From: a virus
Length of the DNA stretch: 64,000 bases
Reading direction: 5' to 3' (one strand)
Virus record (IMG/VR): IMGVR_UViG_3300042868_010462
Location: 83,875-147,874 of that record
Shown: positions 1 through 26,787 of the stretch, one piece after another
How positions within the stretch are numbered: position 1 is the stretch's first letter
Layout: every line of letters starts with the position of its first letter
The notes under the pieces: generated by a model
What the model was told of the DNA's origin: nothing
The model's database searches: none
Seen by the model: only the letters and a program-made list of their open reading frames with translations
Program-made: the position numbers and the translations under genes

Positions 1-136
1 TAACCCAAGTATTCAACATCCTTATCTTCAAAGTAGGGTGGTAATCCCATATACTCATCCAAGAGTTGTTTGACCTTTTCAACTGTCGTTGCAGTTAGTA
101 CTGGGATTTTATCTTCCCTATCTACTATAAGATATA

Positions 137-517
137 TTAGTGCCATTGTTGTAAACTTTTATTTATATTAATTTTTGTCAATTTTTTTTTTCTTTTTTTT
201 TTATTTTTTTCTTTTCCTTTTTTTTCTTTTATTTTTTTTTCTTTTGTTTTTACGACTTCCACCAAATCCATTTCTGGGTCAGATAATTCTTGATAACCAA
301 ACATTGAAAAGTCAGAAATATAAGACCACCACTTTCCATCAAAAACATATCTTTCATGGTCTATTTTTGGTTTTTTATTGTCAATGCTTTTACCAAAATA
401 AATTCCATCCCATCCATCTCTTTTCCCTTCTATTGGTGGATTACCCTTGATAATTTTTACTAATCTACCATCTCTACTCTTGTAAGTTTTACCTACTTCT
501 AAAATTATATTTTCCAT
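137..517 (-). CDS. hypothetical protein with Lys-rich C-terminus
   Basis: ORF 137..685 trimmed to MENIILEVGKTY start, because the longer version overlaps the tRNA-like element. Confidence 0.6.
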   Translation of the reverse strand: MENIILEVGKTYKSRDGRLVKIIKGNPPIEGKRDGWDGIYFGKSIDNKKPKIDHERYVFDGKWWSYISDFSMFGYQELSDPEMDLVEVVKTKEKKIKEKKGKEKNKKKRKKKLTKININKSLQQWH

Positions 518-549
518 ATTTATAATTTTTATTTTTTTAAATAAGTTAG

Positions 550-630
550 TAGTCAGGACAGGATTCGAACTTGTGACGATAAACGCAGATGTGTACCTCA
601 TCTTGGCAGCTCCAATTCTGCCACCTGACT
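550..630 (-). pseudogene. degenerate tRNA-like element (anticodon position GTA)
   Basis: Acceptor stem AGTCAGG/CCTGACT, D-arm and GTTCGAATC T-loop present; anticodon loop AGGTACA is non-canonical and the T-stem has a mismatch. Confidence 0.6.
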
Positions 631-730
631 TTGTTTGTTTAAACTTTTCGGTTTTCCTATTCAAAACCTTAACGTCAGGCAACAATCTAAGTGTCAGCCA
701 CTACTTGTGAATTATTAGGTGTCACAACCA

Positions 731-961
731 TTAGAAATATTTTCTTGTAAGATATTCATCAGTTCCTAAACTTGGTGCGTTGTTATTTTCATCTAAATGA
801 AGAAACATAAATCCTTTGTAAGCGTTGGCTTCTAATAGAATCTTTTCAATCATTGTGATGATTCCAAGTTTTTCTTCCATCATAATGTTTGGATGGGCTA
901 ATTGTTCGTTAGCGAAGTTTTTAATCATCTCAACTTGGATTGTTTTTTTCTCTTTAGCCAT
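731..961 (-). CDS. hypothetical protein
   Basis: 76-aa ORF preceded by TATATTTG at 984-991. Confidence 0.7.
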   Translation of the reverse strand: MAKEKKTIQVEMIKNFANEQLAHPNIMMEEKLGIITMIEKILLEANAYKGFMFLHLDENNNAPSLGTDEYLTRKYF

Positions 962-1046
962 TGTGTTATTGTTTAAGTGTTCACAAATATAGAAATAGAT
1001 TTTTAATTACACAACCTTTGATGAATAATTTTGAGAAAAATATTTG

Positions 1047-1117
1047 AGCGGATAGTTGGTACTGCCCCAACTTATCTAGTTTGGAAGACTAGAACATTAC
1101 TTTTATGCTATGCCCGC
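1047..1117 (-). tRNA. tRNA-Gly(TCC), atypical T-loop
   Basis: Anticodon arm CTAGT-CTTCCAA-ACTAG; T-arm GTTGG-GGCAGTA-CCAAC. Confidence 0.8.
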
Positions 1118-1121
1118 TAAT

Positions 1122-1352
1122 TTACCTGAGATTCCAAATACCACCAGCAAAACACTTGAAGTCATTGTAACTTGTAACTCTTATAGGATTTTCTTCATAT
1201 TTCCACCTATTACAAGTTATATAGATTTCTCCTGTCCATTTATCCTTCTTGAGAAAGGTATAAATACCATTACGAGATTTGATATGGATTTTATCCCCAT
1301 TTTTGAGGTTCTTAAACTGAGACAATCTTATTTGTTCCATAAGTGATTCCAT
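1122..1352 (-). CDS. hypothetical protein
   Basis: 76-aa ORF between tRNAs, same strand. Confidence 0.6.
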   Translation of the reverse strand: MESLMEQIRLSQFKNLKNGDKIHIKSRNGIYTFLKKDKWTGEIYITCNRWKYEENPIRVTSYNDFKCFAGGIWNLR

Positions 1353-1369
1353 AGTATTTGAATAAAAAG

Positions 1370-1444
1370 TGGAGCCGGTATGAGGAATCGAACCCCATTA
1401 TCTTGATTACAAGTCAAGCACATCACCACTTATGCTTTACCGGC
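1370..1444 (-). tRNA. tRNA-Thr(TGT)
   Basis: Cloverleaf; CTTGA-CTTGTAA-TCAAG; encoded CCA. Confidence 0.92.
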
Positions 1445-1451
1445 ATTTATA

Positions 1452-1724
1452 TTATCTTCTTTTATAAACATAAGTTATTGTATCACCAATCTTATAAACA
1501 TCATTTCTCTTGGTTATAACAAACTCGTCACAATCAGTTGAATAATGATATCTTTTCCCATATTCAATGGTGGATGGTGATTCTGTAACATAAAATGTAT
1601 CTATTACACATCTTTTAACAATATCCCCATCTTCAATTTCATTATAGTTTGTTCTATTTAGAATTGAAGCTAATAAAACAAATGAAACAAAAAATAAAAA
1701 CAAACAAGGAATTAAATATTTCAT
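1452..1724 (-). CDS. hypothetical protein with N-terminal hydrophobic segment
   Basis: ORF track. Confidence 0.6.
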   Translation of the reverse strand: MKYLIPCLFLFFVSFVLLASILNRTNYNEIEDGDIVKRCVIDTFYVTESPSTIEYGKRYHYSTDCDEFVITKRNDVYKIGDTITYVYKRR

Positions 1725-1726
1725 CT

Positions 1727-1975
1727 TTAAACTTTTAACAAATAAATTAATAATGAACCCAAAGTATAACCAATACTGGAAGCCAAGGCCATCTTGATTC
1801 TTTCATTCCAATTCTTTGATTCAACCATATAACCAACAAATGGTAATCCCAAAAATGGCCCGATACAAGCCCAAAAAATCATCATAAAATCTCTATCAGC
1901 AACCGTTGCAATATACATAGTTGCGGCCAACTCAATAACAAATGATGCGATACCAATTATAATATATTTTTTCAT
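1727..1975 (-). CDS. small membrane protein
   Basis: Three hydrophobic segments. Confidence 0.65.
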   Translation of the reverse strand: MKKYIIIGIASFVIELAATMYIATVADRDFMMIFWACIGPFLGLPFVGYMVESKNWNERIKMALASSIGYTLGSLLIYLLKV

Positions 1976-2568
1976 AAATGTTTAATTACCCAATCCGCAA
2001 ACTTCTTTTGTCCTGATAAACTTACATGAACCCCATCACCAGCATCTTTGAATGTTACAGATGTATCCTTTGGAATTATAAGACAATTTTTCAAACCTGT
2101 CTTTGGGTCAACCATCAATTTTTGAAATTCAACATACCTTGCTCTACATCTATCAGTGGTCTCAGTACCATATACAGTTCTAACCATAACTTTGATGGGG
2201 TCATATCCAACAATAACAATCGGTTTAATCCCCCTCCTATTACAAGAATCAACCATCATCTGTATATTATTAACGGCACCCTGTAAGTTCACATAAGAAA
2301 AAGCATCATTACAACCCCCATAAATAAACACACTGGTAAACATTGAATCTCTCTTCAAATGGTCGTTAAGTGTTAATCTCATCCAATCCGTTCTCTTTCC
2401 ACCACTTGATTTATTTAAACTCTGATAACCGAATTCCTTGGCTACCATATCTTGCCAACCACCAGTATAACAAGTCAAACTATCACCGATGAATAATACC
2501 CTCAAAGGTGGGGTTGAAAAGGAAGTTAATAAAATAACACATAACAATAATAAACTAATTTTCTTCAT
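1972..2568 (-). CDS. SGNH/GDSL hydrolase with signal peptide
   Basis: FIGDSLT block I, GGCND block III, DGVH block V. Confidence 0.88.
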   Translation of the reverse strand: MKKISLLLLCVILLTSFSTPPLRVLFIGDSLTCYTGGWQDMVAKEFGYQSLNKSSGGKRTDWMRLTLNDHLKRDSMFTSVFIYGGCNDAFSYVNLQGAVNNIQMMVDSCNRRGIKPIVIVGYDPIKVMVRTVYGTETTDRCRARYVEFQKLMVDPKTGLKNCLIIPKDTSVTFKDAGDGVHVSLSGQKKFADWVIKHL

Positions 2569-2581
2569 AAAACAATTTTTT

Positions 2582-2659
2582 TGGTGGAGACAGTGAGAAT
2601 CAAACTCACCTCACAGATATTGCAAATATCCATCGCCAAGTCTTGGTACATGTGCCCCC
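2582..2659 (-). tRNA. tRNA-Ala(TGC)
   Basis: G3:U70 pair, TTTGCAA loop, CCA. Confidence 0.88.
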
Positions 2660-2667
2660 ATTTTTAT

Positions 2668-3189
2668 TTATAACCCAATTTCCTCCAAAGGTAAAACCTC
2701 AAAGAAATATTTACAACCAACATCTGTTATATATTCAAAAACATCCTTATAACAATCTTTATTGAAAAAATTACTTAAGACATAATAGTACTCAACTTGG
2801 ATACCGATTGGACTAAACAATTTTTTATATTGTCTTTTTTTGAAATTACAAGTTTGTAATTTCTCATCAACAGAACCGGCACCATTTTGGTATTTCTTTT
2901 CAATTATGTAGATGGTATTCCCCACTAATATTGCAGCATCAGGTAAAAGTTTTTTACTGATAATCGTATTGTGGTCAATATTATATCTACTTAACAATTT
3001 TTTGTACAGACCATATTTCTCAAAATATTCACCGACAATTATACCATTTTTTACAATTTGGTCTTGATTATCCATCACATAATCACTTTGTTCCACTAAC
3101 AATTTTTTTAGGTGTGTTGTAGCTTCAAAATGTAATCCGTTAACATTTGTGTTTGCACCCCCACCACTTTTGTTTGGCGTTCTATTCAT
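2668..3189 (-). CDS. PD-(D/E)XK nuclease-like protein
   Basis: LLPD...IIEKKYQ...GSVDEKLQ motif. Confidence 0.65.
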   Translation of the reverse strand: MNRTPNKSGGGANTNVNGLHFEATTHLKKLLVEQSDYVMDNQDQIVKNGIIVGEYFEKYGLYKKLLSRYNIDHNTIISKKLLPDAAILVGNTIYIIEKKYQNGAGSVDEKLQTCNFKKRQYKKLFSPIGIQVEYYYVLSNFFNKDCYKDVFEYITDVGCKYFFEVLPLEEIGL

Positions 3190-3205
3190 AGTTTTTCTTT
3201 TTTTG

Positions 3206-3290
3206 TGGTGGGAATGGAGGGATTCGAACCCCCTCAGCTAATACAAATGATTTACAGTCATCCCCGACTCTCCAGCTTCGGCGCACTCCC
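3206..3290 (-). tRNA. tRNA-Tyr(GTA)
   Basis: CTGTAAA loop, long variable arm, CCA. Confidence 0.92.
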
Positions 3291-3301
3291 ATTATAAATT
3301 G

Positions 3302-3376
3302 ATGCAGGAACGGGAGTCGAACCCGTATGGTACGGCTTATGAGACCGAGCTGGAACCACTTCCAGTCCATCCTGCA
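3302..3376 (-). tRNA. tRNA-Met(CAT)
   Basis: CTCATAA loop, GGTTCGACTCC T-arm. Confidence 0.85.
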
Positions 3377-3385
3377 TTGTGTTTG

Positions 3386-3457
3386 ACGCAAAGAAAGGAA
3401 TCGAACCTTTTACCTTTGGGTTATGAGCCCAATGTGCAACCACTACACTTCTTTGCA
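3386..3457 (-). tRNA. tRNA-Met(CAT), initiator-like
   Basis: TTGGG-CTCATAA-CCCAA anticodon stem with 3 G-C pairs. Confidence 0.85.
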
Positions 3458-3465
3458 TATATTTG

Positions 3466-3537
3466 TAGCCCGTAGGGGAGTCGAACCCCTCTTGCAAGAA
3501 TGAAAATCTTGAGTCCTAGCCGATAGACGAACGGGCC
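3466..3537 (-). tRNA. tRNA-Glu(TTC)
   Basis: Cloverleaf, TTTTCAT loop. Confidence 0.92.
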
Positions 3538-3548
3538 ATATTTGTTTG

Positions 3549-3622
3549 CGAGCTATAGGGGATTCGAACCCCTGGTCTTCAGCGTGACAAGCTGAAATGT
3601 TAAACCCCTACACCAATAGCTC
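3549..3622 (-). tRNA. tRNA-Asp(GTC)
   Basis: Cloverleaf, TTGTCAC loop. Confidence 0.92.
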
Positions 3623-3644
3623 TTTTGTATTAATTCTTCCCTCT

Positions 3645-3668
3645 ATGTCAATGAACTTTACAAAGTTA
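3645..3668 (-). promoter_or_regulatory. Bacteroidota-type -7 promoter (TAACTTTG) followed by boxA-like GTTCATTGACAT
   Basis: Directly upstream of tRNA-Asp; identical 12-mer at 9480-9491. Confidence 0.65.
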
Positions 3669-3675
3669 AACAATC

Positions 3676-4155
3676 TTATCCAATTTTCCAAGCACCATAG
3701 ATAACTTTTTTTCTCTGTAGTGCATCTTCTGTGTTTCCAATTACAACTCCATCTTTGATTGTGAAAGCATGACCCTTGATTGTAACAATGTAAGTTCCTT
3801 TTGAATACTTTTCCAAGAACTTAGCTGTTGTCATATTTCTCAAAACATTTCTTCCTTTCACCTCAACCCAATATGCCATTTGAATATCTTCTCTAATTGG
3901 TGTAACACCTTTACGATTGAACTTTATCTGTTTTGACGCAAGTGTATTCATAGTTAAACCAAAGAGTGCAGTCCCTTGTCTATTTTTTCTACCAAAAACC
4001 TCTGCCACTTTTTTGTGAGCATAGTCGTAAGTAACTCCAAACGCTGAAGCAAAGGCTCTGACGACACAATCGTCTTTCTCACTTTGAGCTAACTTCGATT
4101 CTGCAATCCCTTTGATGGCGACTGATGATGATATGTATGGTGTTTTCGTTTTCAT
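3676..4155 (-). CDS. hypothetical protein (DCVVRA...H motif, possibly papain-like fold)
   Basis: 159-aa ORF; TAACTTTG at 4160-4167, only 4 nt before ATG. Confidence 0.7.
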   Translation of the reverse strand: MKTKTPYISSSVAIKGIAESKLAQSEKDDCVVRAFASAFGVTYDYAHKKVAEVFGRKNRQGTALFGLTMNTLASKQIKFNRKGVTPIREDIQMAYWVEVKGRNVLRNMTTAKFLEKYSKGTYIVTIKGHAFTIKDGVVIGNTEDALQRKKVIYGAWKIG

Positions 4156-4199
4156 ATTACAAAGTTACAAAACCATTTTTAATTTCCAAACTTTGTGAT

Positions 4200-4235
4200 A
4201 AAAAAAAATCCATCTTTTTTTACGAAGATGGATTT
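4200..4235 (-). terminator. intrinsic terminator of putative attenuator 2
   Basis: AAATCCATCTT/AAGATGGATTT stem plus T-run. Confidence 0.8.
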
Positions 4236-4262
4236 GACATTATTAACACTCAAAACTTAAGT

Positions 4263-4334
4263 TCATACCATCTCCATCCGAGGATTTCTACCCTCAGCTC
4301 CAGTCGTTAAGTCCATATAGAGATTGCGTTTCAT
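4263..4334 (-). CDS. putative leader peptide MKRNLYMDLTTGAEGRNPRMEMV
   Basis: 23-aa ORF just upstream of the terminator; its 3' end is complementary to the terminator arm. Confidence 0.7.
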   Translation of the reverse strand: MKRNLYMDLTTGAEGRNPRMEMV

Positions 4335-4393
4335 TGAATTTCTTACTATTTTTTTATTAAATATAATGATATAACGGAAAAGTGTCAAGTATG

Positions 4394-4705
4394 TTACAAA
4401 AAAGATGAAATAATTTGTGCTACTTTATATCCTGTGAAGGCTCCCAATGCCGCAGAACCTGGTAAAACAAAGAACTTACCGAATAAACTTTCATATTTTG
4501 ACCTATTAACGATGTATGAAATTAGGATATAATAAAGAAAGAAGTTAATCAGTACAGCAATATCGATTTCCTTGGCCATAAAGACAACAATCGAGTTTCC
4601 AAAGAACCCCCAACTGAAGTTTATTAATGTCTCCCTGATTAATTCCCAAACTGATGTATTGGCATCAGCAACCTTAATTTCCCTTGTAAATAAATTATTT
4701 TTCAT
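4394..4705 (-). CDS. membrane protein
   Basis: Hydrophobic ORF. Confidence 0.65.
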   Translation of the reverse strand: MKNNLFTREIKVADANTSVWELIRETLINFSWGFFGNSIVVFMAKEIDIAVLINFFLYYILISYIVNRSKYESLFGKFFVLPGSAALGAFTGYKVAQIISSFL

Positions 4706-5211
4706 CCTATAAAATCGTCAAATCCGTTGTTACTTAAAAAATCGTTATCTTCATCTATTTCTCTTATCTCGAACTCAAAACTTGATACATTACAAACTAC
4801 ATCTTTAGTGAATGTTTCGTGTATATAATCAAAGTCATCTGGAGATATTTGAACTTGTTCATCTTTAAATAATTTGAAAAGTTCCTTTGTATTTCTGTAA
4901 AGATTTGGGTATTGATAAGTTTTCAAAATACCATCCATTTCGAATACTTCAAATCTTTTGTAAAAATTATCGTTGTACATTAGAATATGTTCCTGAGCCC
5001 ACTCATTAACAACTTGAAGAATGAATGTCTTTAAACCCTGCATACAAGCTACCCTATAGTCCTCATATTGTTGTTCAACAGTTAAACTACCAATCTCAAC
5101 ATCATCAACCTCTTCTTCATATTTGGCAATTGTATCCAAGGCCAACATCTGTAATTCATCCCAATTTGTTTGATGTATTTTATAAAAGTTTACAACTACC
5201 ATTTCTTTCAT
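4702..5211 (-). CDS. hypothetical acidic protein
   Basis: ORF track, overlapping stop/start. Confidence 0.7.
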   Translation of the reverse strand: MKEMVVVNFYKIHQTNWDELQMLALDTIAKYEEEVDDVEIGSLTVEQQYEDYRVACMQGLKTFILQVVNEWAQEHILMYNDNFYKRFEVFEMDGILKTYQYPNLYRNTKELFKLFKDEQVQISPDDFDYIHETFTKDVVCNVSSFEFEIREIDEDNDFLSNNGFDDFIG

Positions 5212-5231
5212 TATTAAAGTGTTATTTAATT

Positions 5232-5873
5232 TTATTCCTTCGAATCTGTATCGTAAAACATTAAGTCAGAGTCTTCGGTTGCCCATTTATTATGTCCTTC
5301 ACAATTATAATAATCTAAATTAACTAGATAATCAGGTTTCTCAGGAAAATCTTTTGTGACAAAAGAAGGTTCATTCCATCTTATTCTATTGTTGGGTTGT
5401 AAGGCAATTTGTCCATTATCTAATAAGATGATGTGATGACACTTGTGTTCCATAGGGTCTTCTGACAATGTTAAATCAGTATTCATATCACTTGAACCCC
5501 AGTTAATTGTGCCAAAATAATTTCCATCATACCATTTCTTATCTTTCATAAAAACTGAAACCCGCATCCCATATACAAAACTAAGTTGAATGAGGGAAAA
5601 GTTATATGAAAAACAATTCCATAATTGCAGAAAATGAAAAGACAAATCAGGATTTGGTGTCTCAGGTTTTGTCAATAGTGCATGAGATGGTAATTTGTCT
5701 CTCATTACACCATTGTTCAATAAAACCTGAAACAAAACCGCCTGGTTTGGCATACACCGAATCGAAGTAACAATTCCTTCTGTAAACTCACCAAATCCTT
5801 TTTGGTGCTGATACATATATTCATTTCGAACATAAACTTTAAGTGGGAAAAAATTACTTTCGATATAAGCCAT
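5232..5873 (-). CDS. hypothetical phage protein
   Basis: 213-aa ORF in operon. Confidence 0.75.
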   Translation of the reverse strand: MAYIESNFFPLKVYVRNEYMYQHQKGFGEFTEGIVTSIRCMPNQAVLFQVLLNNGVMRDKLPSHALLTKPETPNPDLSFHFLQLWNCFSYNFSLIQLSFVYGMRVSVFMKDKKWYDGNYFGTINWGSSDMNTDLTLSEDPMEHKCHHIILLDNGQIALQPNNRIRWNEPSFVTKDFPEKPDYLVNLDYYNCEGHNKWATEDSDLMFYDTDSKE

Positions 5874-5875
5874 AA

Positions 5876-6196
5876 TTAACTTGTTGGTATGTCATTTGAG
5901 CCATACTCTCTTATTAAATAGTCGGTAAAATCTTCTACACTTTCAACATTGAACTCAACTTCTTCGTGCCAGATTTTTTTATCAACATCATCATATAACC
6001 ACCAGCCAACTAAGTCCTGAATCCATCCGAATTGTTCGTCTTGTTTTTTTCTGAGGAGGGTCGGAATACTTTTTTCAAGTTGAGGAGTGGTGTTGTTAAG
6101 CTCAAGTAAATCAACTCCCAAACCATAGAGCCTATGTATCTTTTCATCGTATTCTTTAATTTTTAACAAAGTTTCGATTATGTATTCTCGTACCAT
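5876..6196 (-). CDS. hypothetical protein
   Basis: ORF track. Confidence 0.65.
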   Translation of the reverse strand: MVREYIIETLLKIKEYDEKIHRLYGLGVDLLELNNTTPQLEKSIPTLLRKKQDEQFGWIQDLVGWWLYDDVDKKIWHEEVEFNVESVEDFTDYLIREYGSNDIPTS

Positions 6197-6422
6197 TATA
6201 AGTATTATTTAAGTTGTTTGAAATATTTTGGAATTATTATCATACTACTGATGTAAAATGCAATAAACATTACACCATAAACTAATCCCTCGTTGAAATA
6301 GATACCCAAAACATATTTACTAATCAATAGCTGGGGTATCATAATCAAAAAGAAAACTAAAAAAGAAAAGAACACAGTTACAAATGTTTTCATCTCATTT
6401 TATTTTGTGGTTAAATAATTTG

Positions 6423-6495
6423 CAGGTCCCCAAGGATTCGAACCCTGACCGGATAGGTTGGAGCTATCAATGCTAAGCCATTACACTAGAGACCC
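6423..6495 (-). tRNA. tRNA-Trp(CCA)
   Basis: GATAG-CTCCAAC-CTATC; TATCTTTG promoter at 6515-6522. Confidence 0.92.
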
Positions 6496-6530
6496 ATATA
6501 TTTGCTTACTATTACAAAGATAAGAAAAAA

Positions 6531-7265
6531 TTAAAACTTTTTATATTTTTTATCCCAATTTTCAATCCTTTTTAAAAGTTCTTCCATTGTTATTGACGAA
6601 TTATCCTTTTTTATTGAATTATCTGAGAATAATAATAGATTACAATTCGCAGGATGGGATATAATCTTTGGGTTAATCTTATTTCGAAAACCATCCATCA
6701 CAGAATACATATGGTCTTTACTTACCCCTTTCAAATTATTCCGTTTGTTTGTTGGTGAATACCATCCATATTGTTCAACTAAAGATAAATCAAATTCATC
6801 TTTAAAATCTTGGATGTCAAACTTAAAAAAACAAGATGGTCTATAATACTCGTAATATGTTAATTTACAATCATTACATATTATTTTCAACTTTTCAGTT
6901 ACCTCATTAATTGAACAAATCTTACAAATCTTTTTAGTTTTAATCTTTTCCTTTCTGGGCTTGTTTTTTAAGGTCTCTGAAATCTTTTTTTTAGTTTCTT
7001 CAGTCAGTTTTCTATTTCTATTATTATACTGTATAGCACAAGAAGATGAACAAAAGGTATTAGGTTTACTAAAATATTTTTCAAATTCCTTTTTACAATT
7101 TTTACAAACTTGATTTTCCTTGTATATAACTTTTAAATTCAATCTACCCATTTTACAATTGATAGATTTGTAAGTCGTTCCCATAATTTCAGCAATATCA
7201 CCAGGTCTATAACCCTTCTCGACAAGTGAAACTAATTGTTTTATATTTTCATCATTCCATTTCAT
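6531..7265 (-). CDS. putative homing endonuclease (HTH, CxxC pairs, HNH-like C-terminus)
   Basis: SKDH...HPANC...N..K motif; NUMOD3-like TEETKKKISETLK; free-standing in the tRNA array. Confidence 0.65.
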   Translation of the reverse strand: MKWNDENIKQLVSLVEKGYRPGDIAEIMGTTYKSINCKMGRLNLKVIYKENQVCKNCKKEFEKYFSKPNTFCSSSCAIQYNNRNRKLTEETKKKISETLKNKPRKEKIKTKKICKICSINEVTEKLKIICNDCKLTYYEYYRPSCFFKFDIQDFKDEFDLSLVEQYGWYSPTNKRNNLKGVSKDHMYSVMDGFRNKINPKIISHPANCNLLLFSDNSIKKDNSSITMEELLKRIENWDKKYKKF

Positions 7266-7317
7266 ATATATAAATATCTAAGAAATGAGGAAAAGTAAAG
7301 AATCGAACTTTTTTTTG

Positions 7318-7391
7318 AGGTCGGGGAGGGAATCGAACCCCCCTAAAAATGATTTTGCAGGTCATTGCCTAAACCACTCGGCCACCCGACC
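7318..7391 (-). tRNA. tRNA-Cys(GCA)
   Basis: CTGCAAA loop, cloverleaf. Confidence 0.92.
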
Positions 7392-7543
7392 TTAATATTT
7401 CTTTTTTATCCCCCAACTTCACCCCACTCGTCAGTGGGGGAGTGGTTAGGTTGAGTCCGAACTTATACCTTGGGCTATTCGTTGGACAAAAAGACCACAG
7501 CAAGTGAGCAGTTCTAATGGGATGCTTCGTGGTACATTGAATG

Positions 7544-7618
7544 TGACCCTGGTGAGACTCGAACTCACGCTCCCTAAATTAAAAGTTTAGTGCTTTAAAC
7601 CAACTAAGCCACAGGGTC
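7544..7618 (-). tRNA. tRNA-Lys(TTT)
   Basis: CTAAA-CTTTTAA-TTTAG. Confidence 0.92.
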
Positions 7619-8176
7619 ATTAATCAAATTTTCTATTAGGATTCATTCCTCTCTTATAGTTCACACACAATCTATCTTTATCATCAAAGAAAGTATTGAC
7701 CATTGGTGTGCCCAATTTTATACCACAACCATCAGGTGCGAAACTACATAAACTTCTTGCACGACCATCCAAGTTTACATCTTCCAATAATCTCCACTCA
7801 ATTCCTGTCTCCACATCATAAACATAATCACCATCTCTCAATACATAAAGTTGGTTGTATCTGTTTCTCATTGATTCATAAAACTTCGCTGACATAGTGT
7901 TCATTAAAATTAAAACTTTCAACATAATTCGGTTGATTGAATGGTTAACTAATCCTGTCTAATTACATTCCCAAATCTACACAAAAGATTCATATATTTT
8001 ACTGTTTCCATCAAATAATTTTGATTTTTATCCATTAAAATAACAACCTCCATATCAATAATTGCTCTTACCTGAACCTCCTTGTTGTTGGGATTGTCAT
8101 CACCAAAATCAATAATTAAGTTGTCACCAACTTTAAACTCACCAATTTTTACCTTTTCCATAATAAATATTTTTTG

Positions 8177-8251
8177 TTGTTCCGGTGAGGCTCGAACTCA
8201 CGACTTCTACGGTATCAGCATAGTACTCTAAACCAACTGAGTTACGGAACA
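8177..8251 (-). tRNA. tRNA-Ile(GAT)
   Basis: CTGATAC loop. Confidence 0.9.
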
Positions 8252-8258
8252 ATGTTTG

Positions 8259-8332
8259 TGGTTCCATCAGGATTTGAACCTGAAACCCCTCCGTTATGAG
8301 CGGAAAGCTCTAACCACTTGAGCTATAGAACC
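8259..8332 (-). tRNA. tRNA(CAT), probably Ile2 (lysidine type)
   Basis: CTCATAA loop; body resembles Ile2 tRNAs; Met not excluded. Confidence 0.75.
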
Positions 8333-8346
8333 TTAAAAAAAATTTG

Positions 8347-8418
8347 TATGGGTGACCGGATTTGAACCGATGACCACTAATTCCCAAAATTAGCATTCTA
8401 CCTCTGAACTACACCCAT
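8347..8418 (-). tRNA. tRNA-Pro(TGG)
   Basis: CTAAT-TTTGGGA-ATTAG. Confidence 0.9.
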
Positions 8419-8588
8419 ATATTAAACAATTAAACCATATATAATTCCACATAGAAGAACAATTAGAAAAATAAGTCCTACTAAGAATAGGTCTGAGTTT
8501 CGTTTGAAGTGAGACAAAACTAAGAATAATATTCCAATTATCAAAAACAAAAGACCAATTAATAATAACATAATTTAATTTTTTTTTG

Positions 8589-8682
8589 CGGAGAACAGAG
8601 GTCTCGAACCCACACACCAGCTCATCACCGATGACATCTGATTTTCAAGACCAGGCCGATACCAATTTCGGTTGACTTTTCC
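8589..8682 (-). tRNA. tRNA-Ser(TGA)
   Basis: CTTGAAA loop, long variable arm, G73. Confidence 0.88.
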
Positions 8683-8690
8683 GTATTGTT

Positions 8691-8767
8691 TGGTGGTATG
8701 ATGGGACTCGAACCCACACATACATCATCCACAATGATGTCCCTCTACCAATTGGGGTACATACCAC
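8691..8767 (-). tRNA. tRNA-His(GTG)
   Basis: TTGTGGA loop. Confidence 0.9.
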
Positions 8768-8775
8768 ATATAGTT

Positions 8776-8851
8776 TGGTGGTGATGATTGGAATCGAACC
8801 AATATTAAACGATTTTCAGTCGTTCGCCTTGACCAACTTGGCAACATCACC
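8776..8851 (-). tRNA. tRNA-Phe(GAA)
   Basis: CTGAAAA loop, CCA. Confidence 0.92.
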
Positions 8852-8861
8852 ATAAAGTTTT

Positions 8862-8925
8862 GAGTAAGTATCCACCACGTTTAAGGCTGGCTGTGGACAG
8901 TGCTACCTACGACCTTTCCTTACTC
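8862..8925 (-). ncRNA. candidate small structured RNA
   Basis: GAGTAAG/CTTACTC closing stem, right after the TAACTTTG promoter (8931-8938) and before tRNA-Phe. Confidence 0.45.
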
Positions 8926-9390
8926 TTCTACAAAGTTACCATTTTTTTTTAATTTCCAAATATCTTTGTAAGTTTTTTTTAAAGTGGTCAAAATCCACCA
9001 CTTTAAGTTATTACTACACAATCCATAAAATGGTAAAAACCAATTAATGTAAAACTTGAACAATAAATTATTTTAAAAAAAATTTTGAATTTTACTTGGA
9101 TGTATGGTATTTGTTTTGTTTCTTTGTTAAACATTATTTCACTACTAAAAATTTAAAATTATGAACACACAATTGAGCACAACTTCAAAAATTATTGTTG
9201 GAATTATTTCTGTTGTATTATTATACAACGCTACTTACCTACTAGGAATTGTTGTAGGTTTTTTACAAGGTATTTTGGGTTAAAATTATTCTTTTAAAAG
9301 TAGAATTCGGATTTTATTTAAAAGTTCGAATTCTACTTTTATTATCTCTATTTCATTATACCAGGTAATAAAATCCCTCACTTTAGAATG

Positions 9391-9463
9391 TTCCCCCTGA
9401 TGGAATCGAACCACCATCCTCAGAATCAAAATCTGATGTAATCAACCATTATACCAAGAGGGA
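9391..9463 (-). tRNA. tRNA-Gln(TTG)
   Basis: TCAGA-TTTTGAT-TCTGA. Confidence 0.92.
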
Positions 9464-9479
9464 GTATTATTTTACCACG

Positions 9480-9491
9480 ATGTCAATGAAC
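9480..9491 (-). promoter_or_regulatory. boxA-like GTTCATTGACAT
   Basis: Exact copy of 3645-3656; lies between the terminator and the first tRNA. Confidence 0.55.
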
Positions 9492-9523
9492 AAAAAAAAC
9501 CCTGAACTTTATGGTTCAGGGTT
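9492..9523 (-). terminator. intrinsic terminator of putative attenuator 1
   Basis: AACCCTGAAC/GTTCAGGGTT stem plus T-run. Confidence 0.85.
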
Positions 9524-9547
9524 CTACTATCAAAAAATTATTAACAA

Positions 9548-9655
9548 TTATAATTCTATAGAATTTCCCCAACCATTACAAACACTCGGCTTTGACCAAC
9601 AATTGCTAAATTGTGGCTGAACCGATATGTTAATATGTTTGAAGAAATTTTTCAT
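9548..9655 (-). CDS. putative leader peptide MKNFFKHINISVQPQFSNCWSKPSVCNGWGNSIEL
   Basis: 35-aa ORF upstream of the terminator; its 3' end is complementary to the terminator arm. Confidence 0.72.
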   Translation of the reverse strand: MKNFFKHINISVQPQFSNCWSKPSVCNGWGNSIEL

Positions 9656-9703
9656 TTTTTTAGTTTGTTTATAAGTATTGCGAAATTAATAAAAAGTTTG
9701 GCT

Positions 9704-10014
9704 CAGAATGATTTTTTTCCAAAGTTGCAATTTTGTTTAGTTTGCTGAACTCATTCTTTATAACCTAAATTGACAGGATAGTGTTTGGTCAAATTTACAA
9801 GTTTTGATGTTTAAAGATTGCTGAATCTATCCCTCGTTCTATATAACGTAAATATAATTAAAAAGTTTCAAAAAGAAAAGAAAATTGGAAAAATTGGTTT
9901 CAGTATGGGTTTTTTGTTGAAGTTTATTTCCGTGCGATTGGAAAAATGAGTCAACAACTCAGCCTTGTGTTCGAATGATTCAATATTTGTATCTTAGTTT
10001 GCTGGAATCATACT
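9704..10014 (-). repeat. three stem-closed CAGCAA...CTG elements (candidate ncRNAs)
   Basis: Units at 9704-9757, 9774-9833 and 9901-10014 with different but complementary closing stems. Confidence 0.7.
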
Positions 10015-10039
10015 TTATAAACCAATTTTTCCTTTTCTC

Positions 10040-11437
10040 TTAGATTTCGATGATTGAGTATCTCTCTGAATTGATTGTCTCATTCATAATAGATACTGGT
10101 GTCATCTGTTTTCCACCCAATACTGACTTTACAATACTTGGTGAAAGACCTGAGATTAATGCAGTCCCCGATTCATCACATCTAACAGGAAAGTTTTTAT
10201 TCCTTGATTGAATATTCCAAAATATGATTTGTGGTAATGAATAGCCACTTTCATCATACATTCTTCTTATCATCTGAATCGCACTTTCAGAGTGACGTGA
10301 AGCTTGGTTAAATTCCATATCAGACATAATCAATATCTTAGAAGGCATATCTTCAGGTGATACACTATGTTTGATAGCTTGATTAAGAATAAGTTCGAAT
10401 ACTTTTTCTAAGTTAGTACTCATACCCCAATCCGCAACTAACATTTGGTCGTAGCGTTCTTTAAGTGTCCCCGAAACCTTTTCAAGTTGGGGCTTTTCAG
10501 AGAAAGTAATGAAAGAATCTTTGAAAACTCCTTCATTTCTTTCTGAGATATATAAACCTAAAGAAACTGCTACATCCAAACAACTAATACTACCAGAAAC
10601 TATTGAACTCATTGAACCTGACACATCAACTACAGGTAAAATTCTTTCAGTTGTACCTTCCATAAAGTTTGGTAAAGCTTTCCATTGCTCGTTTGCCAAT
10701 TCCCAACTACCTTGTTTCATTGTTTGAACAATGTTATAAGGATATATAGCACCAGCATTCACTTTGGTTTCACCTTTCTTTAGTTTTTCTAAATACTCAG
10801 TGAATCCAGTTGTGTCGTGTTTAGCAAAAGCCTTTGTGTATCTACCCATAGCCAAAGATGGAGTTTTTGAGTACTCAATCTCAGTCCATTGGTTTGCACA
10901 CATCTTTTGTTCGACAGTGTTGGAAACTCCTACCAATAATTTACGGAGGTTTTTAGGGGTGGTATTCAATGCTTTTCTAATTGCGTTGAAAATAACACCC
11001 TTTCTTGGTATCCACTTTGCACATAGTCCATTTTCTACAATAAGACCACTTACAAACATTCTGGTCGCCTCAGCTTCCAACTCGGTACCAAAAAGAACTG
11101 AAAGGTCATCCCATCTACCAAAGTATGGTATTGCTTGGATGTTCTTTTGAACAACATTTGGATGATTCTCCACAAGATACTTGATGATATCTCGGAAGAT
11201 TTGTCTTTCACCTGCTCCACCTCTTACATCTCTAACCCAAAATAGGATTTTCAATGCTGACAACGGATTCTCATTGAAAGCTTTTGAGAATGTTGAGATA
11301 AGTCTTTCCTTATCTTGTTTTCTCATAGCACCAATAGTAAAGAATAGGTTTACACATTCGTTCAAAGTTGAAGAATTAGTTACCATTCCATTTTCCGTGT
11401 AAGTGTCCTCTGATTGTAAGGCATCAATGAAGTTCAT
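10040..11437 (-). CDS. DUF2828-type TROVE/Ro60-like protein with C-terminal vWA domain
   Basis: TENG, RDVRGGAGER, GRWDDL, AKWIPR; vWA MIDAS VDVSGSM; SDMEF; IIFWN. Confidence 0.85.
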   Translation of the reverse strand: MNFIDALQSEDTYTENGMVTNSSTLNECVNLFFTIGAMRKQDKERLISTFSKAFNENPLSALKILFWVRDVRGGAGERQIFRDIIKYLVENHPNVVQKNIQAIPYFGRWDDLSVLFGTELEAEATRMFVSGLIVENGLCAKWIPRKGVIFNAIRKALNTTPKNLRKLLVGVSNTVEQKMCANQWTEIEYSKTPSLAMGRYTKAFAKHDTTGFTEYLEKLKKGETKVNAGAIYPYNIVQTMKQGSWELANEQWKALPNFMEGTTERILPVVDVSGSMSSIVSGSISCLDVAVSLGLYISERNEGVFKDSFITFSEKPQLEKVSGTLKERYDQMLVADWGMSTNLEKVFELILNQAIKHSVSPEDMPSKILIMSDMEFNQASRHSESAIQMIRRMYDESGYSLPQIIFWNIQSRNKNFPVRCDESGTALISGLSPSIVKSVLGGKQMTPVSIMNETINSERYSIIEI

Positions 11438-11676
11438 ATCGTTTCGTTTAATTGTGTTTTAAAACTTAAGTAATCGTTTTTGATTTGTCAAGGACTTTTA
11501 AATCTTTTTTACTTCGTATTTGTAACCTGAGTCGGAATTAGTTTCGAAAAGATTCTTCATATTTTCAGCCTCCTCAATAGTTTCAAATTCTAATACTTCA
11601 CATTGTGTATCAACTAATACAACAGGTAAAGTCGTATTGTGGTCTGTTTTGATGTGTTTTACAATAATATACATAA

Positions 11677-11949
11677 TTAAAATCGTTTTGCAATATTCTC
11701 AATTATATCAATTTCCTCATCTGTTAGAGTTAACCGATTACTTCTAATTTTTTCTATGGTTTCGTACCATAAGGTGTCATTAAGTGATAAATTTTGTGTT
11801 TGGGTATAAGTAGTAAGTGTTTTTGGTAAACTACCATCTTCAACCAAATAACGAATTAGTTTTTCGATTTCTCTACCTGAACATGAGTCAACAAATTCTT
11901 CAACATCAATATCTACTTCAGCTTCTACATCTTGATAAAAGGTTGGCAT
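11677..11949 (-). CDS. hypothetical protein
   Basis: ORF track. Confidence 0.65.
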   Translation of the reverse strand: MPTFYQDVEAEVDIDVEEFVDSCSGREIEKLIRYLVEDGSLPKTLTTYTQTQNLSLNDTLWYETIEKIRSNRLTLTDEEIDIIENIAKRF

Positions 11950-11953
11950 AATT

Positions 11954-12331
11954 TTAATTTTTTAAATCTTGTATTTGAATTAATTTTTCTGTCACTTGTT
12001 CAGGTGTGAGGTAACCTATGACATCATCAGTTATTGGTGTAGTATAGGTTAATTCACCATTTTTGTCAAGTACAGCCATTTCATATAAACCCATCTTTCC
12101 ACCATAGGACATTGGATGGGAAACCACTGAAGCACCATAACCATTTTCGAACATAGTTACACTTCTTACACCACTCATAGGATGGGGTGTGAATTGGATA
12201 TCTTCAAATTTTTTGTACTTCAAGTCAAGTTCATCAATTAATCGTTGATAGGATAAACCTGTTACTTTGGATGTTTCTACTATACCATTTTCAGTATAGA
12301 ATTGTTTCATTTTTTCTTTTGGATTACTCAT
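11954..12331 (-). CDS. hypothetical phage protein
   Basis: FENGYGASVV...GLYEMAVL motif. Confidence 0.7.
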   Translation of the reverse strand: MSNPKEKMKQFYTENGIVETSKVTGLSYQRLIDELDLKYKKFEDIQFTPHPMSGVRSVTMFENGYGASVVSHPMSYGGKMGLYEMAVLDKNGELTYTTPITDDVIGYLTPEQVTEKLIQIQDLKN

Positions 12332-23781: not shown

Positions 23782-25647
23782 TTACTTTACTTCTTCAAAC
23801 TCTACATCTGAACCTGTAAAACCATCAGTGTTTTCAGTTTGTTCACTCACATTACTATAAAGTTCTTGGGTAATTTTTTGCATAATTGAATTAACATTAT
23901 CTAACGCAGGGTCAATTTTTTCAATTTCACCAGTGTTTTTAGCCTCTTTTAATTCCTCCAAACCTTTTTTAACTTCTTCTTTGTGTTCATCAGAGATTTT
24001 TTCATCCAAATCCTTCAAAGTTTTCTCAATATTAAAGATTGTACTATCAGCCTCATTGATTTTTTCAGCTTTTTCTTTAGCTAATTTATCACTTTCAGCA
24101 TTTTCCTCAGCTTCTCTCTTCATTCTGTCGATTTCTTCTTGTGAAAGTCCAGATGATGACTCAATTCTAATCGTTTGTTGTTTGTTTGTTCCCTTGTCTA
24201 AGGCCGAAACATTGATAATACCATTTGCATCGATGTCAAAAGTAACTTCGATTTGAGGAATACCTCTCATTGATGGTGGAATACCATCTAAATGGAATCT
24301 ACCAATAGTTCTGTTGTCTTTTGCCATTGGTCTTTCACCTTGTATTACGTGAATTTCAACAGAAGGTTGATTATCTACCGCAGTTGAGAAGATTTGTGAC
24401 TTTTTGGTTGGAATTGTTGTATTTGCTTCGATTAATCTTGTCATTACACCACCCATTGTCTCAATTCCTAATGAAAGTGGGGTAACATCCAATAAAAGAA
24501 CATCTTTTACATCACCAGCTAATACACCACCTTGAATCGCAGCACCCAAAGCAACAACTTCGTCAGGATTTACACCTTTTGACGCTTCTTTTCCGAAAAA
24601 CTTCTTAACTGCTTCTTGAATTGCAGGGATTCTAGTAGAACCACCAACCAAAATAACCTCATCAATGTCATTAATTGTCAATCCAGCGTTTTTAAGAGCT
24701 GATTTACAAGGTGCAATCGTTCTTTCAACCAATTTATCAATAATTTGTTCAAACTTTGCTCTTGTAAGTGTTTTTACAAGGTGTTTTGGTTGATTATCAA
24801 TTACCATAAAGTAAGGTAAGTTAATTTCAGTACTTTGAGATGAAGATAATTCAATTTTTGCCTTCTCAGCTGCCTCTCTTAACCTTTGGATTGCCATAGA
24901 ATCATCATTCCAAGCACCATTGTTCTCATTTTTGAACTCGTTTTTTAACCAATCAGAAATAGCATTGTCAAAGTCATCACCACCTAAGTGTGTATCACCA
25001 TCGGTTGATAATACTTCAAATACACCACCACCTAATTCTAGTACAGATACATCGTGTGTACCCCCACCACAGTCAAAAACAACGATTTTAGAGTCCTTGT
25101 TTTTCTTATCAAGACCATAAGCAAGAGCAGCTGCAGTTGGTTCATTGATAATTCTCTTAACTTTCAGACCCGCAATCTCACCAGCTTCTTTTGTTGCTTG
25201 TCTTTGAGCATCATTGAAGTAAGCAGGAACTGTGATAACGGCTTCAGTTACTTCTTGACCCAAATAATCTTCAGCAGTTTGTTTCATTTTCTGTAACACC
25301 ATTGCTGAGATTTCTTGAGGTGAGAATTGTTTATCATCAATCTCTACTCTTGGGGTGTTGTTTTTCCCTTTTACGACCTTATAAGGAACTCTCTTAACCT
25401 CTGACTTGGTTTCGTCATAATTTGAGCCCATAAAGCGTTTGATTGAATAAATTGTTTTGTCAGGATTGGTTACAGCTTGTCTTTTTGCTGGGTCTCCAAT
25501 CTTTCTTTCACCATTGTCAACAAATCCAATGATTGAAGGGGTTGTTCTTTTACCTTCATTGTTTGTTATTACAATTGGTTCTCCATTTTCCATTACGGCT
25601 ACACACGAGTTTGTAGTCCCTAAATCGATTCCAATAATTTTACTCAT
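23782..25647 (-). CDS. dnaK: molecular chaperone DnaK (Hsp70)
   Basis: [47 protein letters not shown]. Confidence 0.98.
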
Positions 25648-25852
25648 ATTTTGTTCGTTTTTGTTTGAATTATATTGTTTATTTTTTATGTAGTCAATTC
25701 TACTCACAAACATTTGTTATAAAAAATTAATCCAAACCTTTTTAACCTGACAAATTGTCAGTTTTAATGACAAAACATAATTTTTTTTATTATTTTTATA
25801 AAAAAATTGATTTTTCTAAAATCTTATCGTATTTATTCCTAAAAGAAAAAAA

Positions 25853-25923
25853 ATGGACATCAATCTAAACAACATATACAATTTTTAATTCATAACCCCC
25901 TTATTATTAGGGGGCTTTTTTTT
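25853..25923 (+). promoter_or_regulatory. Asn-rich leader peptide (MDINLNNIYNF) plus terminator: putative attenuator
   Basis: ORF 25853-25888; CCCCCT/AGGGGG hairpin 25896-25914 followed by T-run. Confidence 0.65.
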
Positions 25924-25953
25924 ATAAACCAATAAACAAAATTAATAACAAAA

Positions 25954-26787
25954 ATGAAAAACACACAAATCTACAACGAGTTAGTACAAAAGATGAGAAA
26001 CTTTTTCCAAGCCAAAGGTTTCTTGGAGGTTCCAACACAATCTAGACTTTCAATCCTTGCCGCTTGTGAAAATCCACATAGCATCACAAAATTTGAATAT
26101 TCAGGTGAAATTTGGCCTTTACCACAAACAGGTCAAATGTGGTTGGAATATGAATTACTTCTAAATCCTGAATTTCCTGGTGTATATTGTATCTCCACAT
26201 CATACAGACAAGAAGCAAACCCAATCCCTGGTCGTCACGACTTAATCTTCCCTATGTTCGAAGTTGAAACAAAAGGAACTAAAGAAGATATGGTTAAACT
26301 TCAAGCGGAAATGTTAGAATATTTGGGATTTGATATTCCAATAGTTGTAGATTATAATGAACTTTGTGAAAAATACGGAACTGAAATCCTTGAAGCTGAA
26401 CACGAAACAAAAATGTGGAATGAAATCGGTGATTCTATCTCACTTCAAAACTTCCCATTGAGAACAAATCCTTTTTGGAATATGCAAAAGGGTGAAGGTG
26501 ACAAATTCCAAAAGGTTGATGTTATCCTTTTCGGTCAAGAAACAATCGGTTCTGCTGAAAGAAGTTGTGATAAAGAAAGTATGAAAGAAATGTTCTACAC
26601 AATCGAAGGTGGGAACTACTCAGCAAAACTTTTTGAATTATTTGGTAAGGAAAGAGTAGAAAAAGAATTGGAACATTTCTTATCTTTGGATTTCTTCCCA
26701 AGATTTGGATGGGGTTGTGGCCTTACAAGATTGGCAAGAGCTTATGAATTGAATCTTACAAAAAAACTTACTGAAGCAATCATTTAA
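25954..26787 (+). CDS. class IIb aaRS catalytic-core paralog lacking anticodon-binding domain (candidate asparagine synthetase)
   Basis: Motif 1 FFQAKGFLEVPT, motif 2 YRQE...RH...F.MFE.E, motif 3 GWGCGLTRL; 277 aa only. Confidence 0.8.
   Translation: MKNTQIYNELVQKMRNFFQAKGFLEVPTQSRLSILAACENPHSITKFEYSGEIWPLPQTGQMWLEYELLLNPEFPGVYCISTSYRQEANPIPGRHDLIFPMFEVETKGTKEDMVKLQAEMLEYLGFDIPIVVDYNELCEKYGTEILEAEHETKMWNEIGDSISLQNFPLRTNPFWNMQKGEGDKFQKVDVILFGQETIGSAERSCDKESMKEMFYTIEGGNYSAKLFELFGKERVEKELEHFLSLDFFPRFGWGCGLTRLARAYELNLTKKLTEAII

Follow-up and report, generated by a model that had tools for sequence, protein, structure and literature searches.

Organisation of the leader modules and the tRNA clusters

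The window analysed here is the whole stretch of 64,000 nucleotides (nt) that comprises bases 83875-147874 of the 147,874-base-pair (bp) IMG/VR virus record IMGVR_UViG_3300042868_010462, the completeness of which is about 50% according to CheckV. Coordinates refer to the window unless the record is named. All transfer RNA (tRNA) genes lie on the minus strand, at record positions 81,998-93,337. Small open reading frames (ORFs), mostly without a known family, are found among them, and a few of these resemble nucleases or a GDSL hydrolase. Two short ORFs of the minus strand, leader 1 (9655-9548) and leader 2 (4334-4263), are each followed by an intrinsic terminator and divide the tRNA genes into two groups: cluster 1, between the leaders, and cluster 2, past leader 2. 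The present analysis concerns these two modules as candidate transcription attenuators of the tRNA genes that follow them. Upstream of leader 1 is the gene for a 465-amino-acid (aa) DUF2828/DUF7788 protein (10040-11437).

An earlier description made from the letters of the window and their translations (the sequence-only reading) had proposed both leaders, and both were found where it had placed them and with the translations it had given. Its counts of residues that match the downstream tRNAs (23 of 34 in leader 1 and 12 of 22 in leader 2) and its remarks on synonymous codons are also correct. In agreement with the intrinsic terminators that it had named, each ORF is followed by a strong terminator-like hairpin with a T-run (9525-9496, 12 pairs; 4235-4206, 11 pairs).

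Leader 1 comprises 35 codons and a stop codon (9548-9655), and its codons 2-26 specify only amino acids of cluster 1, as this set is defined in the clade. The ORF is preceded by a promoter-like region (AACTTTTT ... TACTTATA, or TATATTTA in relatives; 9668-9700), which is conserved in every version of the module, also where the DNA beyond it is different. Segment 2 (9567-9577, codons 27-30, core ATGGTT) is the predicted 5' strand of an antiterminator, and segment 1 (9632-9640, codons 6-8) could pair with it when no ribosome is present. Terminator 1 (9489-9525) consists of a 5' arm (9525-9514), a 3' arm (9507-9496) and a T-run. It is followed by a 30-nt spacer, kept in all lineages, and then by tRNA-Gln(ttg) (9390-9463), which is the first gene past the terminator. 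The spacer (9464-9495, minus strand) contains TTGACA and the extended -10-like TGGTAAAAT, and may be a dedicated promoter or a processing signal of tRNA-Gln.

Leader 2 comprises 23 codons and a stop codon (4263-4334). Its promoter-like site (4360-4388) has the form TTGACA-17-TATATT with 11 of 12 matches, and shows few changes among relatives. Codons 5-16 (LYMDLTTGAEGR) specify all nine amino acids of cluster 2 and no others. A hairpin is formed within codons 13-19 (4278-4297), the sole variable position of which changes a G-U to a G-C pair in one lineage. Segment 2 of this leader (ATGGAGATGG; 4268-4277), the putative 5' strand of its antiterminator, lies 2 nt ahead of the stop codon. Terminator 2 (4198-4235) has its 5' arm at 4235-4225 and its 3' arm at 4216-4206, followed by a T-run. 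The claim that leader 2 heads its cluster applies directly to two relatives, in which tRNA-Asp lies about 60 nt past terminator 2. In the window, however, a Bacteroidota-type promoter-like site directly past the terminator (4190-4160) and an ORF of 159 aa (phrog_3754; 3676-4155), missing in those two relatives, separate the terminator from tRNA-Asp.

A terminator scan of 20 kb around the tRNA region identified terminators 1 and 2 as the only two convincing intrinsic terminators of the minus strand inside the 16-kb tRNA region; no other convincing site was found between the two, nor before record position 78,032. No family of the PHROGs database matches the peptide of leader 1 or leader 2, and a search of Rfam (E <= 1, window 1-12000) gave no T-box or other cis-regulatory family at either leader.

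Concerning the tRNA genes, ARAGORN finds 16 in the window. At a low threshold on short segments the program gave junk calls on the wrong strand, and similarity to the tRNAs of relatives was used for assignment instead. The rest of cluster 1 (6422-8851), with small ORFs interspersed, contains tRNA-Phe (8851-8776), tRNA-His (8766-8692), a hybrid tRNA-Ser (8681-8588), tRNA-Pro (8418-8346), tRNA-Ile2(cat) (8332-8258), tRNA-Ile (8251-8176), tRNA-Lys (7618-7543), tRNA-Cys (7391-7317) and tRNA-Trp (6495-6422). The portion of cluster 2 in the window (549-3622) contains tRNA-Asp (3622-3548), tRNA-Glu (3537-3465), two tRNA-Met genes (3457-3385 and 3376-3301), two tRNA-Tyr genes (3290-3206 and 630-549), a doubtful tRNA-Ala (2657-2582), tRNA-Thr (1444-1370) and tRNA-Gly (1117-1047). 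The list of the sequence-only reading is thus solid for Gln, Phe, His, Pro, Ile2(cat), Ile, Lys, Cys, Trp, Asp, Glu, both Met, Tyr and Thr, and less so for Gly, Ser and Ala. The Gly gene is an Rfam tRNA match only (40.7 bits), missed by ARAGORN and 79% like the tRNA-Gly of relatives over 38 nt. The Ser gene is a low-scoring tRNA-Ser(tga) that ARAGORN reports only at the low threshold, and its last 32 nt are 97% identical to the tRNA-Ser(gct) of a relative. The gene order in relatives is His, Ser(tga), Asn, Arg(acg), Ser(gct); most likely, the two Ser genes were joined by a deletion in this phage, with loss of tRNA-Asn and tRNA-Arg(acg), which left the hybrid. As for the prediction that further tRNA genes lie left of the window, Arg(tct), Leu(taa) and Leu(tag) are present there, but Asn and Val are not.

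Two side observations were made in the same region. A 107-nt Rfam tRNA match (39 bits) at record 83648-83754 (minus strand), 120-226 bases left of the window start, is not called by ARAGORN; at its 3' end it is 93% like the tRNA-Leu and tRNA-Val of relatives (3' ends), and the match may represent a tRNA that carries an insertion, or else a remnant. Also, the ORFs at 6531-7265 and 2668-3189 (both minus strand) have weak NUMOD3 and PD-(D/E)XK nuclease matches, under the Pfam cut-offs, and may be homing-endonuclease-like, as in other phage tRNA regions.

Match between the leader peptides and the tRNA content

The tRNA genes are split in the same way in eight related genomes, with three stray extra genes. 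Across these genomes, cluster 1 comprises Gln, Phe, His, Ser, Asn, Arg(acg), Pro, Ile, Lys, Val, Cys and Trp, and cluster 2 comprises Asp, Glu, Met, Tyr, Gly, Ala, Thr, Arg(tct) and Leu. The match between the composition of each leader and its cluster was assessed by a partition test, in which all 11/8 splits of 19 amino acids were scored against both peptides; Arg was excluded because it is present in both clusters. With the peptides of the window, the real split matches 44 of 53 residues, and none of the other splits among the 75,582 scores as high (p = 1.3e-5). For the whole peptides of four relatives the p values range from 8e-5 to 3e-3; when only their sensing codons are scored, the real split comes 1st or 2nd of 75,582. 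With the tRNA sets of this genome alone, it has the highest score among 24,310 splits.

The match far exceeds what chance would give, and it is stronger than the sequence-only reading had claimed, since Asn and Val, which it had counted as mismatches of leader 1, correspond to tRNA-Asn and tRNA-Val in cluster 1 of relatives. The six-frame translation of the whole record (295,672 windows) contains one 12-mer that is wholly made of cluster-2 amino acids and covers all nine; it corresponds to codons 5-16 of leader 2. Among 24-mers, just three overlapping windows consist of cluster-1 amino acids alone and cover eleven of them, and these windows are taken to lie in a 25-residue run of leader 1. All twenty amino acids are represented in the two sensing regions taken together. 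The leaders also sample isoacceptor families separately (ATT/ATA, TCN/AGY, CTC/TTA and AGA), each of which has a matching tRNA in the cluster of the clade.

Base composition was considered as a cause of the match and rejected: the split of the tRNAs ignores codon G+C, as Pro, Trp and Cys are found with Lys, Asn and Phe, and Tyr, Met and Leu with Gly and Ala. The partition test is conditional on the peptide sequences, and therefore A+T-rich composition cannot explain its result. It is very improbable, in our estimate, that the leaders are ordinary small phage genes or small RNAs with insulating terminators and that the tRNA match is coincidental. Short ORFs are indeed common in A+T-rich DNA and neither peptide has a family match, but coincidence would have to account for the p value of the partition, for two cores that are each unique in the genome, for a split and leaders that are conserved across lineages, and for the terminator and tRNA-Gln that follow every version of leader 1 described below.

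Conservation of the modules in related phages

A megablast search of window positions 1-12000 against GenBank phages gave no match, and the distant mode gave tRNA-sized matches only; no close cultured relative of this phage was found in these searches. Five closely related contigs with syntenic tRNA clusters were found through the DUF2828 protein, and further relatives (IMG/VR and metagenome contigs) through DNA patterns and searches of whole records. Contigs L017, L018 and L021-L025 were set aside, as the first degenerate DNA pattern of leader 1 matched unrelated contigs at about the rate expected by chance.

Leader 1 is found in relatives in 19 nucleotide versions that encode 13 peptides, and in all 19 it is followed by the terminator, the conserved spacer and tRNA-Gln. 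In one lineage the DNA upstream is unrelated and the leader 1 module is intact. Leader 2 is found in seven nucleotide versions. These differ only at codon 3, within codons 10-13 and at the last codon, by a synonymous substitution in codon 17, and in whether TGA or TAA serves as stop codon. The ORF and its ATG are present in all versions of both leaders. The expectation that a short ORF and a terminator precede the tRNA clusters of related phages was borne out, as both modules are conserved as units.

An element of about 190 nt, which is not in the window, was noticed in the interval between tRNA-Glu and tRNA-Met of two relatives (L003:19537-19727 and L002:21064-21256). It starts like the leader 2 hairpin and segment 2, with an in-frame stop codon, ends like a tRNA T-arm and acceptor, and matches no Rfam family. 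The idea that leader 2 is itself a degenerate tRNA or tRNA-like RNA was rejected: this look-alike after the tRNA-Glu of relatives matches no family of that database, and the codon evidence of leader 2 is independent of it.

Coding constraint on leader 1

The 19 versions of leader 1 differ by synonymous third-position changes at codons 11, 12, 13, 14 and 21, where the residue is kept, and by in-frame changes of length. At codons 2-21, 39 of the 42 residue states belong to the cluster-1 set. Looking at the minority states separately, 19 of 22 are within this set, against an expected fraction of 0.55 from single-base neighbours (p = 0.002). Non-conservative swaps are seen at codon 10 (I/K/N/R/Q) and codon 12 (V/I/F), and one lineage carries the identical three residues in another order at codons 16-18. 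The CAT ATT codons of segment 1 are invariant in all versions. These changes look like selection on which tRNAs are called, rather than on the shape of the peptide.

Predicted terminator and antiterminator pairings

The RNA of leader 1 folds far more stably than its shuffled versions (z = -5.6). The two arms of terminator 1 pair in 100% of cells in the 19 versions, with one compensatory pair. Segment 2 is the best partner of the 5' arm of this terminator in all 13 distinct combinations (free energy -10.9 to -13.6 kcal/mol); its position is ORF nt 73-94 in every case, at the stop codon or just ahead of it. In the 19-row alignment, 93% of the cells of the segment 2 and terminator arm pairing can pair, compared with 14-59% in slid controls. 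The 3' part of the ORF is otherwise variable; the invariant core is TGGTT, nearly always with A before it, and this ATGGTT motif is kept in three reading frames across lineages. Also, column 141 in the 5' arm of terminator 1 changes from G to A in one lineage, where segment 2 and the 3' arm each show the corresponding change from C to U. The pairing of segment 1 with segment 2 is possible in 92.5% of cells in the 19 versions (23-38% in slid controls), with no covariation among these versions.

In leader 2, a helix of 10 bp between the last codons and the 5' arm of terminator 2 is part of the minimum-energy fold of the full-length RNA; the centroid fold shows the terminator. When masking by a ribosome is simulated, the antiterminator persists as long as the A site is at codons 1-16 (leader 2) or 1-24 (leader 1) and disappears further along; the helix of leader 2 is gone with the A site at codon 18 or later. 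In both leaders these ranges coincide with the codons that match the tRNAs. According to this model, a ribosome at the stop codon would mask the antiterminator segment at the 3' end of the ORF or separate it from the terminator arm, and an earlier stall would leave it free.

A different outlet for the same signal has to be considered: the leaders may be translated and sense decoding, and act through stalling-dependent cleavage or stabilisation of a tRNA precursor, through Rho-type polarity, or through a trans-acting leader RNA or peptide. The codon match alone is silent on how the signal is read out, duplex energies lie just marginally above those of shuffles, and the promoter-like sites past the terminators mean that the leaders could be self-contained transcripts of about 150 nt. 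Trans-acting attenuator RNAs and leader peptides are known in Sinorhizobium (PMC6614838, PMC7298713), which favours this option. We regard it nevertheless as unlikely, given that 13 variants, and both leaders, have an antiterminator segment at the end of the ORF, that this segment is preserved in three frames and covaries with the terminator arm, and that the codon range which spares the antiterminator coincides with the matched codons.

Attenuation as the preferred reading and the possible role of internal promoters

Our preferred reading, to which we give a probability of roughly 0.68, is that the modules are two ribosome-mediated leader-peptide transcription attenuators which control read-through into the two tRNA clusters. 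The sequence-only reading had proposed codon-matched attenuators, and the computation supports it through the conserved modules, the synonymous changes, the best split and the antiterminator segments. The ORFs are conserved, their codons match the tRNAs, the terminators are present, and the alternative pairing is conserved and covaries. From these features we infer that the ORFs are translated, that ribosomes stall on them and that read-through is regulated.

In the proposed mechanism, each unit would consist of a promoter-like site of its own, a short ORF that is translated and an intrinsic terminator. The early codons would demand the amino acids of the downstream tRNAs, and the last codons would encode the segment that pairs with the 5' arm of the terminator. 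When all codons are read fast, the ribosome would move onto this segment and the nearby stop codon, the terminator would form and a leader RNA of about 150 nt would be released. When any cognate charged tRNA is scarce, the ribosome would stall upstream, the antiterminator would form and RNA polymerase would read through the cluster, in which it would meet no further terminator. The fresh tRNAs would relieve the stall, which would amount to negative feedback on tRNA supply. In leader 1, pairing of segments 1 and 2 would hold the terminator on when the ORF is not translated. We lean, by somewhat better than even odds, to the wider view that the two leaders act as a decoding check of the full alphabet, comprising twenty amino acids and several isoacceptor families, in which each leader opens the block that repairs the shortfall. 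If so, the tRNA supply would adjust itself to a codon-usage mismatch with the host, to the decay of host tRNAs in infection or to tRNA-cleaving defences.

The sequence-only reading had cautioned that internal promoters could bypass the attenuators, and such sites are real and conserved in eight genomes. The window contains 11 promoter-like sites of the Bacteroidota type (TTTG, 18-21 nt, TAnnTTTG), an enrichment over the 4.2 expected, and no shuffle reaches this number. In addition to the site past terminator 2, one (TTTG-N18-TAACTTTG; 8931-8960, minus strand) lies ahead of tRNA-Phe. They recur in the clusters of 8/8 genomes, about 10-15 nt past the T-run of terminator 2, in the interval between Gln and Phe, and before Pro; therefore, the attenuators may supplement a basal supply and not be the sole control. 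The same sites are the only hint of a Bacteroidota host.

This recurrence, together with the enrichment in the window, also favours an explanation in which the attenuators work, or once worked, and matter little: the internal promoters would supply the tRNAs, and the leaders would gate only tRNA-Gln and the 159-aa ORF, or would be relics that linkage has preserved. The loss of three cluster-1 tRNAs in this genome with leader 1 unchanged points in the same direction. Such a minor role is also unlikely in our judgement, as each leader lists the amino acids of the whole cluster, beyond those of its first gene, and no terminator is found between the first gene and the remaining cluster. Also, the substitutions of leader 1 are within the cluster-1 set, and therefore continuing selection is indicated.

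Several points weigh against attenuation by these leaders. The internal promoter-like sites could drive the tRNAs whatever the attenuators do. At fine scale the composition of the leaders fails to follow the tRNA content of this genome, in which tRNA-Asn, tRNA-Val and tRNA-Arg(acg) are lost and leader 1 still has five Asn and two Val codons; the leaders therefore do not track recent losses. Residues outside the cluster sets are found in leader 1 of some lineages (Thr at codon 3 or 4, Leu at codon 13) and at codons 2-4 of leader 2 (Lys, Arg/His/Tyr and Asn). Each amino acid is represented by one to five scattered codons and not by the classical runs, so the sensitivity of the sensor is uncertain. 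Leader 2 is nearly invariant at the nucleotide level, and its coding and RNA constraints are thus inseparable; in relatives, a paralogue of its 3' half contains an in-frame stop codon. Concerning the pairings, the duplex energies only marginally beat those of shuffles (p = 0.04-0.3), and the covariation is a single evolutionary event.

Comparison with known systems

The arrangement resembles that of the classical attenuators of enterobacteria (trpL, hisL, pheL and leuL; PMC3082878, PMC4046918), which have a short leader ORF followed by an intrinsic terminator. In these a segment near the end of the ORF has two alternative partners, an upstream segment and the 5' arm of the terminator, as is predicted here; the stop codon lies 45-55 nt ahead of the T-run in both cases. 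The differences are that enzyme genes are found downstream there and tRNA genes and small ORFs here, that the classical leaders have a run of codons for one amino acid whereas in those described here each of 9-11 amino acids has one to five codons, scattered along the ORF, and that the signal of slow decoding would here be relieved directly by the gene product.

Multivalent attenuators also sense several amino acids by one leader peptide, but two or three related ones, compared with nine to eleven unrelated ones in the present leaders. The ilvGMEDA leader senses Ile, Leu and Val, and the thr leader Thr and Ile. Leader-peptide attenuation of aminoacyl-tRNA synthetase genes is represented by pheST and its leader pheM. 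In bacilli, a His leader is found upstream of hisS paralogues (PMC2965389). The synthetase attenuators are alike in that a leader peptide governs a component of decoding according to the supply of the cognate charged tRNA, and differ in that the target is a protein gene and a single amino acid is sensed. The survey of PMC2965389 mentions no tRNA gene as a target of attenuation. T-box riboswitches are similar in that the status of tRNA sets the choice between terminator and antiterminator ahead of translation-related genes; they differ in that they bind uncharged tRNA directly and need no ORF.

What tRNA genes do for phages has been under debate for decades, and little is known of how these genes are regulated. 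Codon compensation is one of the roles proposed for phage tRNA clusters. Others are escape from anticodon nucleases (PMC10264068) and rescue from PARIS (PMC11464382). The clusters of cultured phages are alike in that small ORFs and nuclease-like genes are scattered through the blocks of tRNA genes. The text of PMC10264068 contains none of the terms 'attenuat', 'leader', 'terminator' or 'promoter', and full-text searches of the literature gave no account of leader-peptide attenuation of tRNA genes. Leader-peptide attenuators that have been described govern genes of amino-acid biosynthesis or synthetases, a group to which the tRNA genes found here do not belong. The class of mechanism would thus be classical, and the tRNA target and the checklist of many amino acids would be new.

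If the preferred reading is correct, the modules would be direct sequence-level evidence of a phage which measures decoding speed and adjusts its own tRNA supply. Leader-peptide attenuation would be extended to tRNA genes and to up to eleven amino acids sensed at once, and the leaders would reveal the codons that the phage treats as limiting. The modules, of about 200 nt each, would also be a compact natural part for sensing tRNA availability.

Other elements of the window

Downstream of the DUF2828/DUF7788 gene, on the minus strand, is a spacer of 350 nt (9690-10040). It contains a 35-nt direct repeat (9737-9771 and 9994-10028, 83% identical) and a 23-nt inverted repeat (9878-9900 and 10019-10041) which closes a long stem. 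The spacer may encode a non-coding RNA partner of the Ro60-like protein specified by that gene; it has no Rfam Y RNA match, and its fold is no better than that of shuffles (z = -0.86). An ORF of 643 aa at 23782-25713 (minus strand) resembles an Hsp70/DnaK chaperone, judged by the appearance of its sequence alone. On the plus strand, at about 25865-25953, an ORF of 11 codons, four of which are Asn codons, ends a few bases before a G+C-rich hairpin with a T-run, and an ORF of 277 aa (25954-26787) starts about 35 nt past this hairpin and T-run. The short ORF and its hairpin may be a third attenuator, responding to a single amino acid, in a phage that has lost tRNA-Asn.

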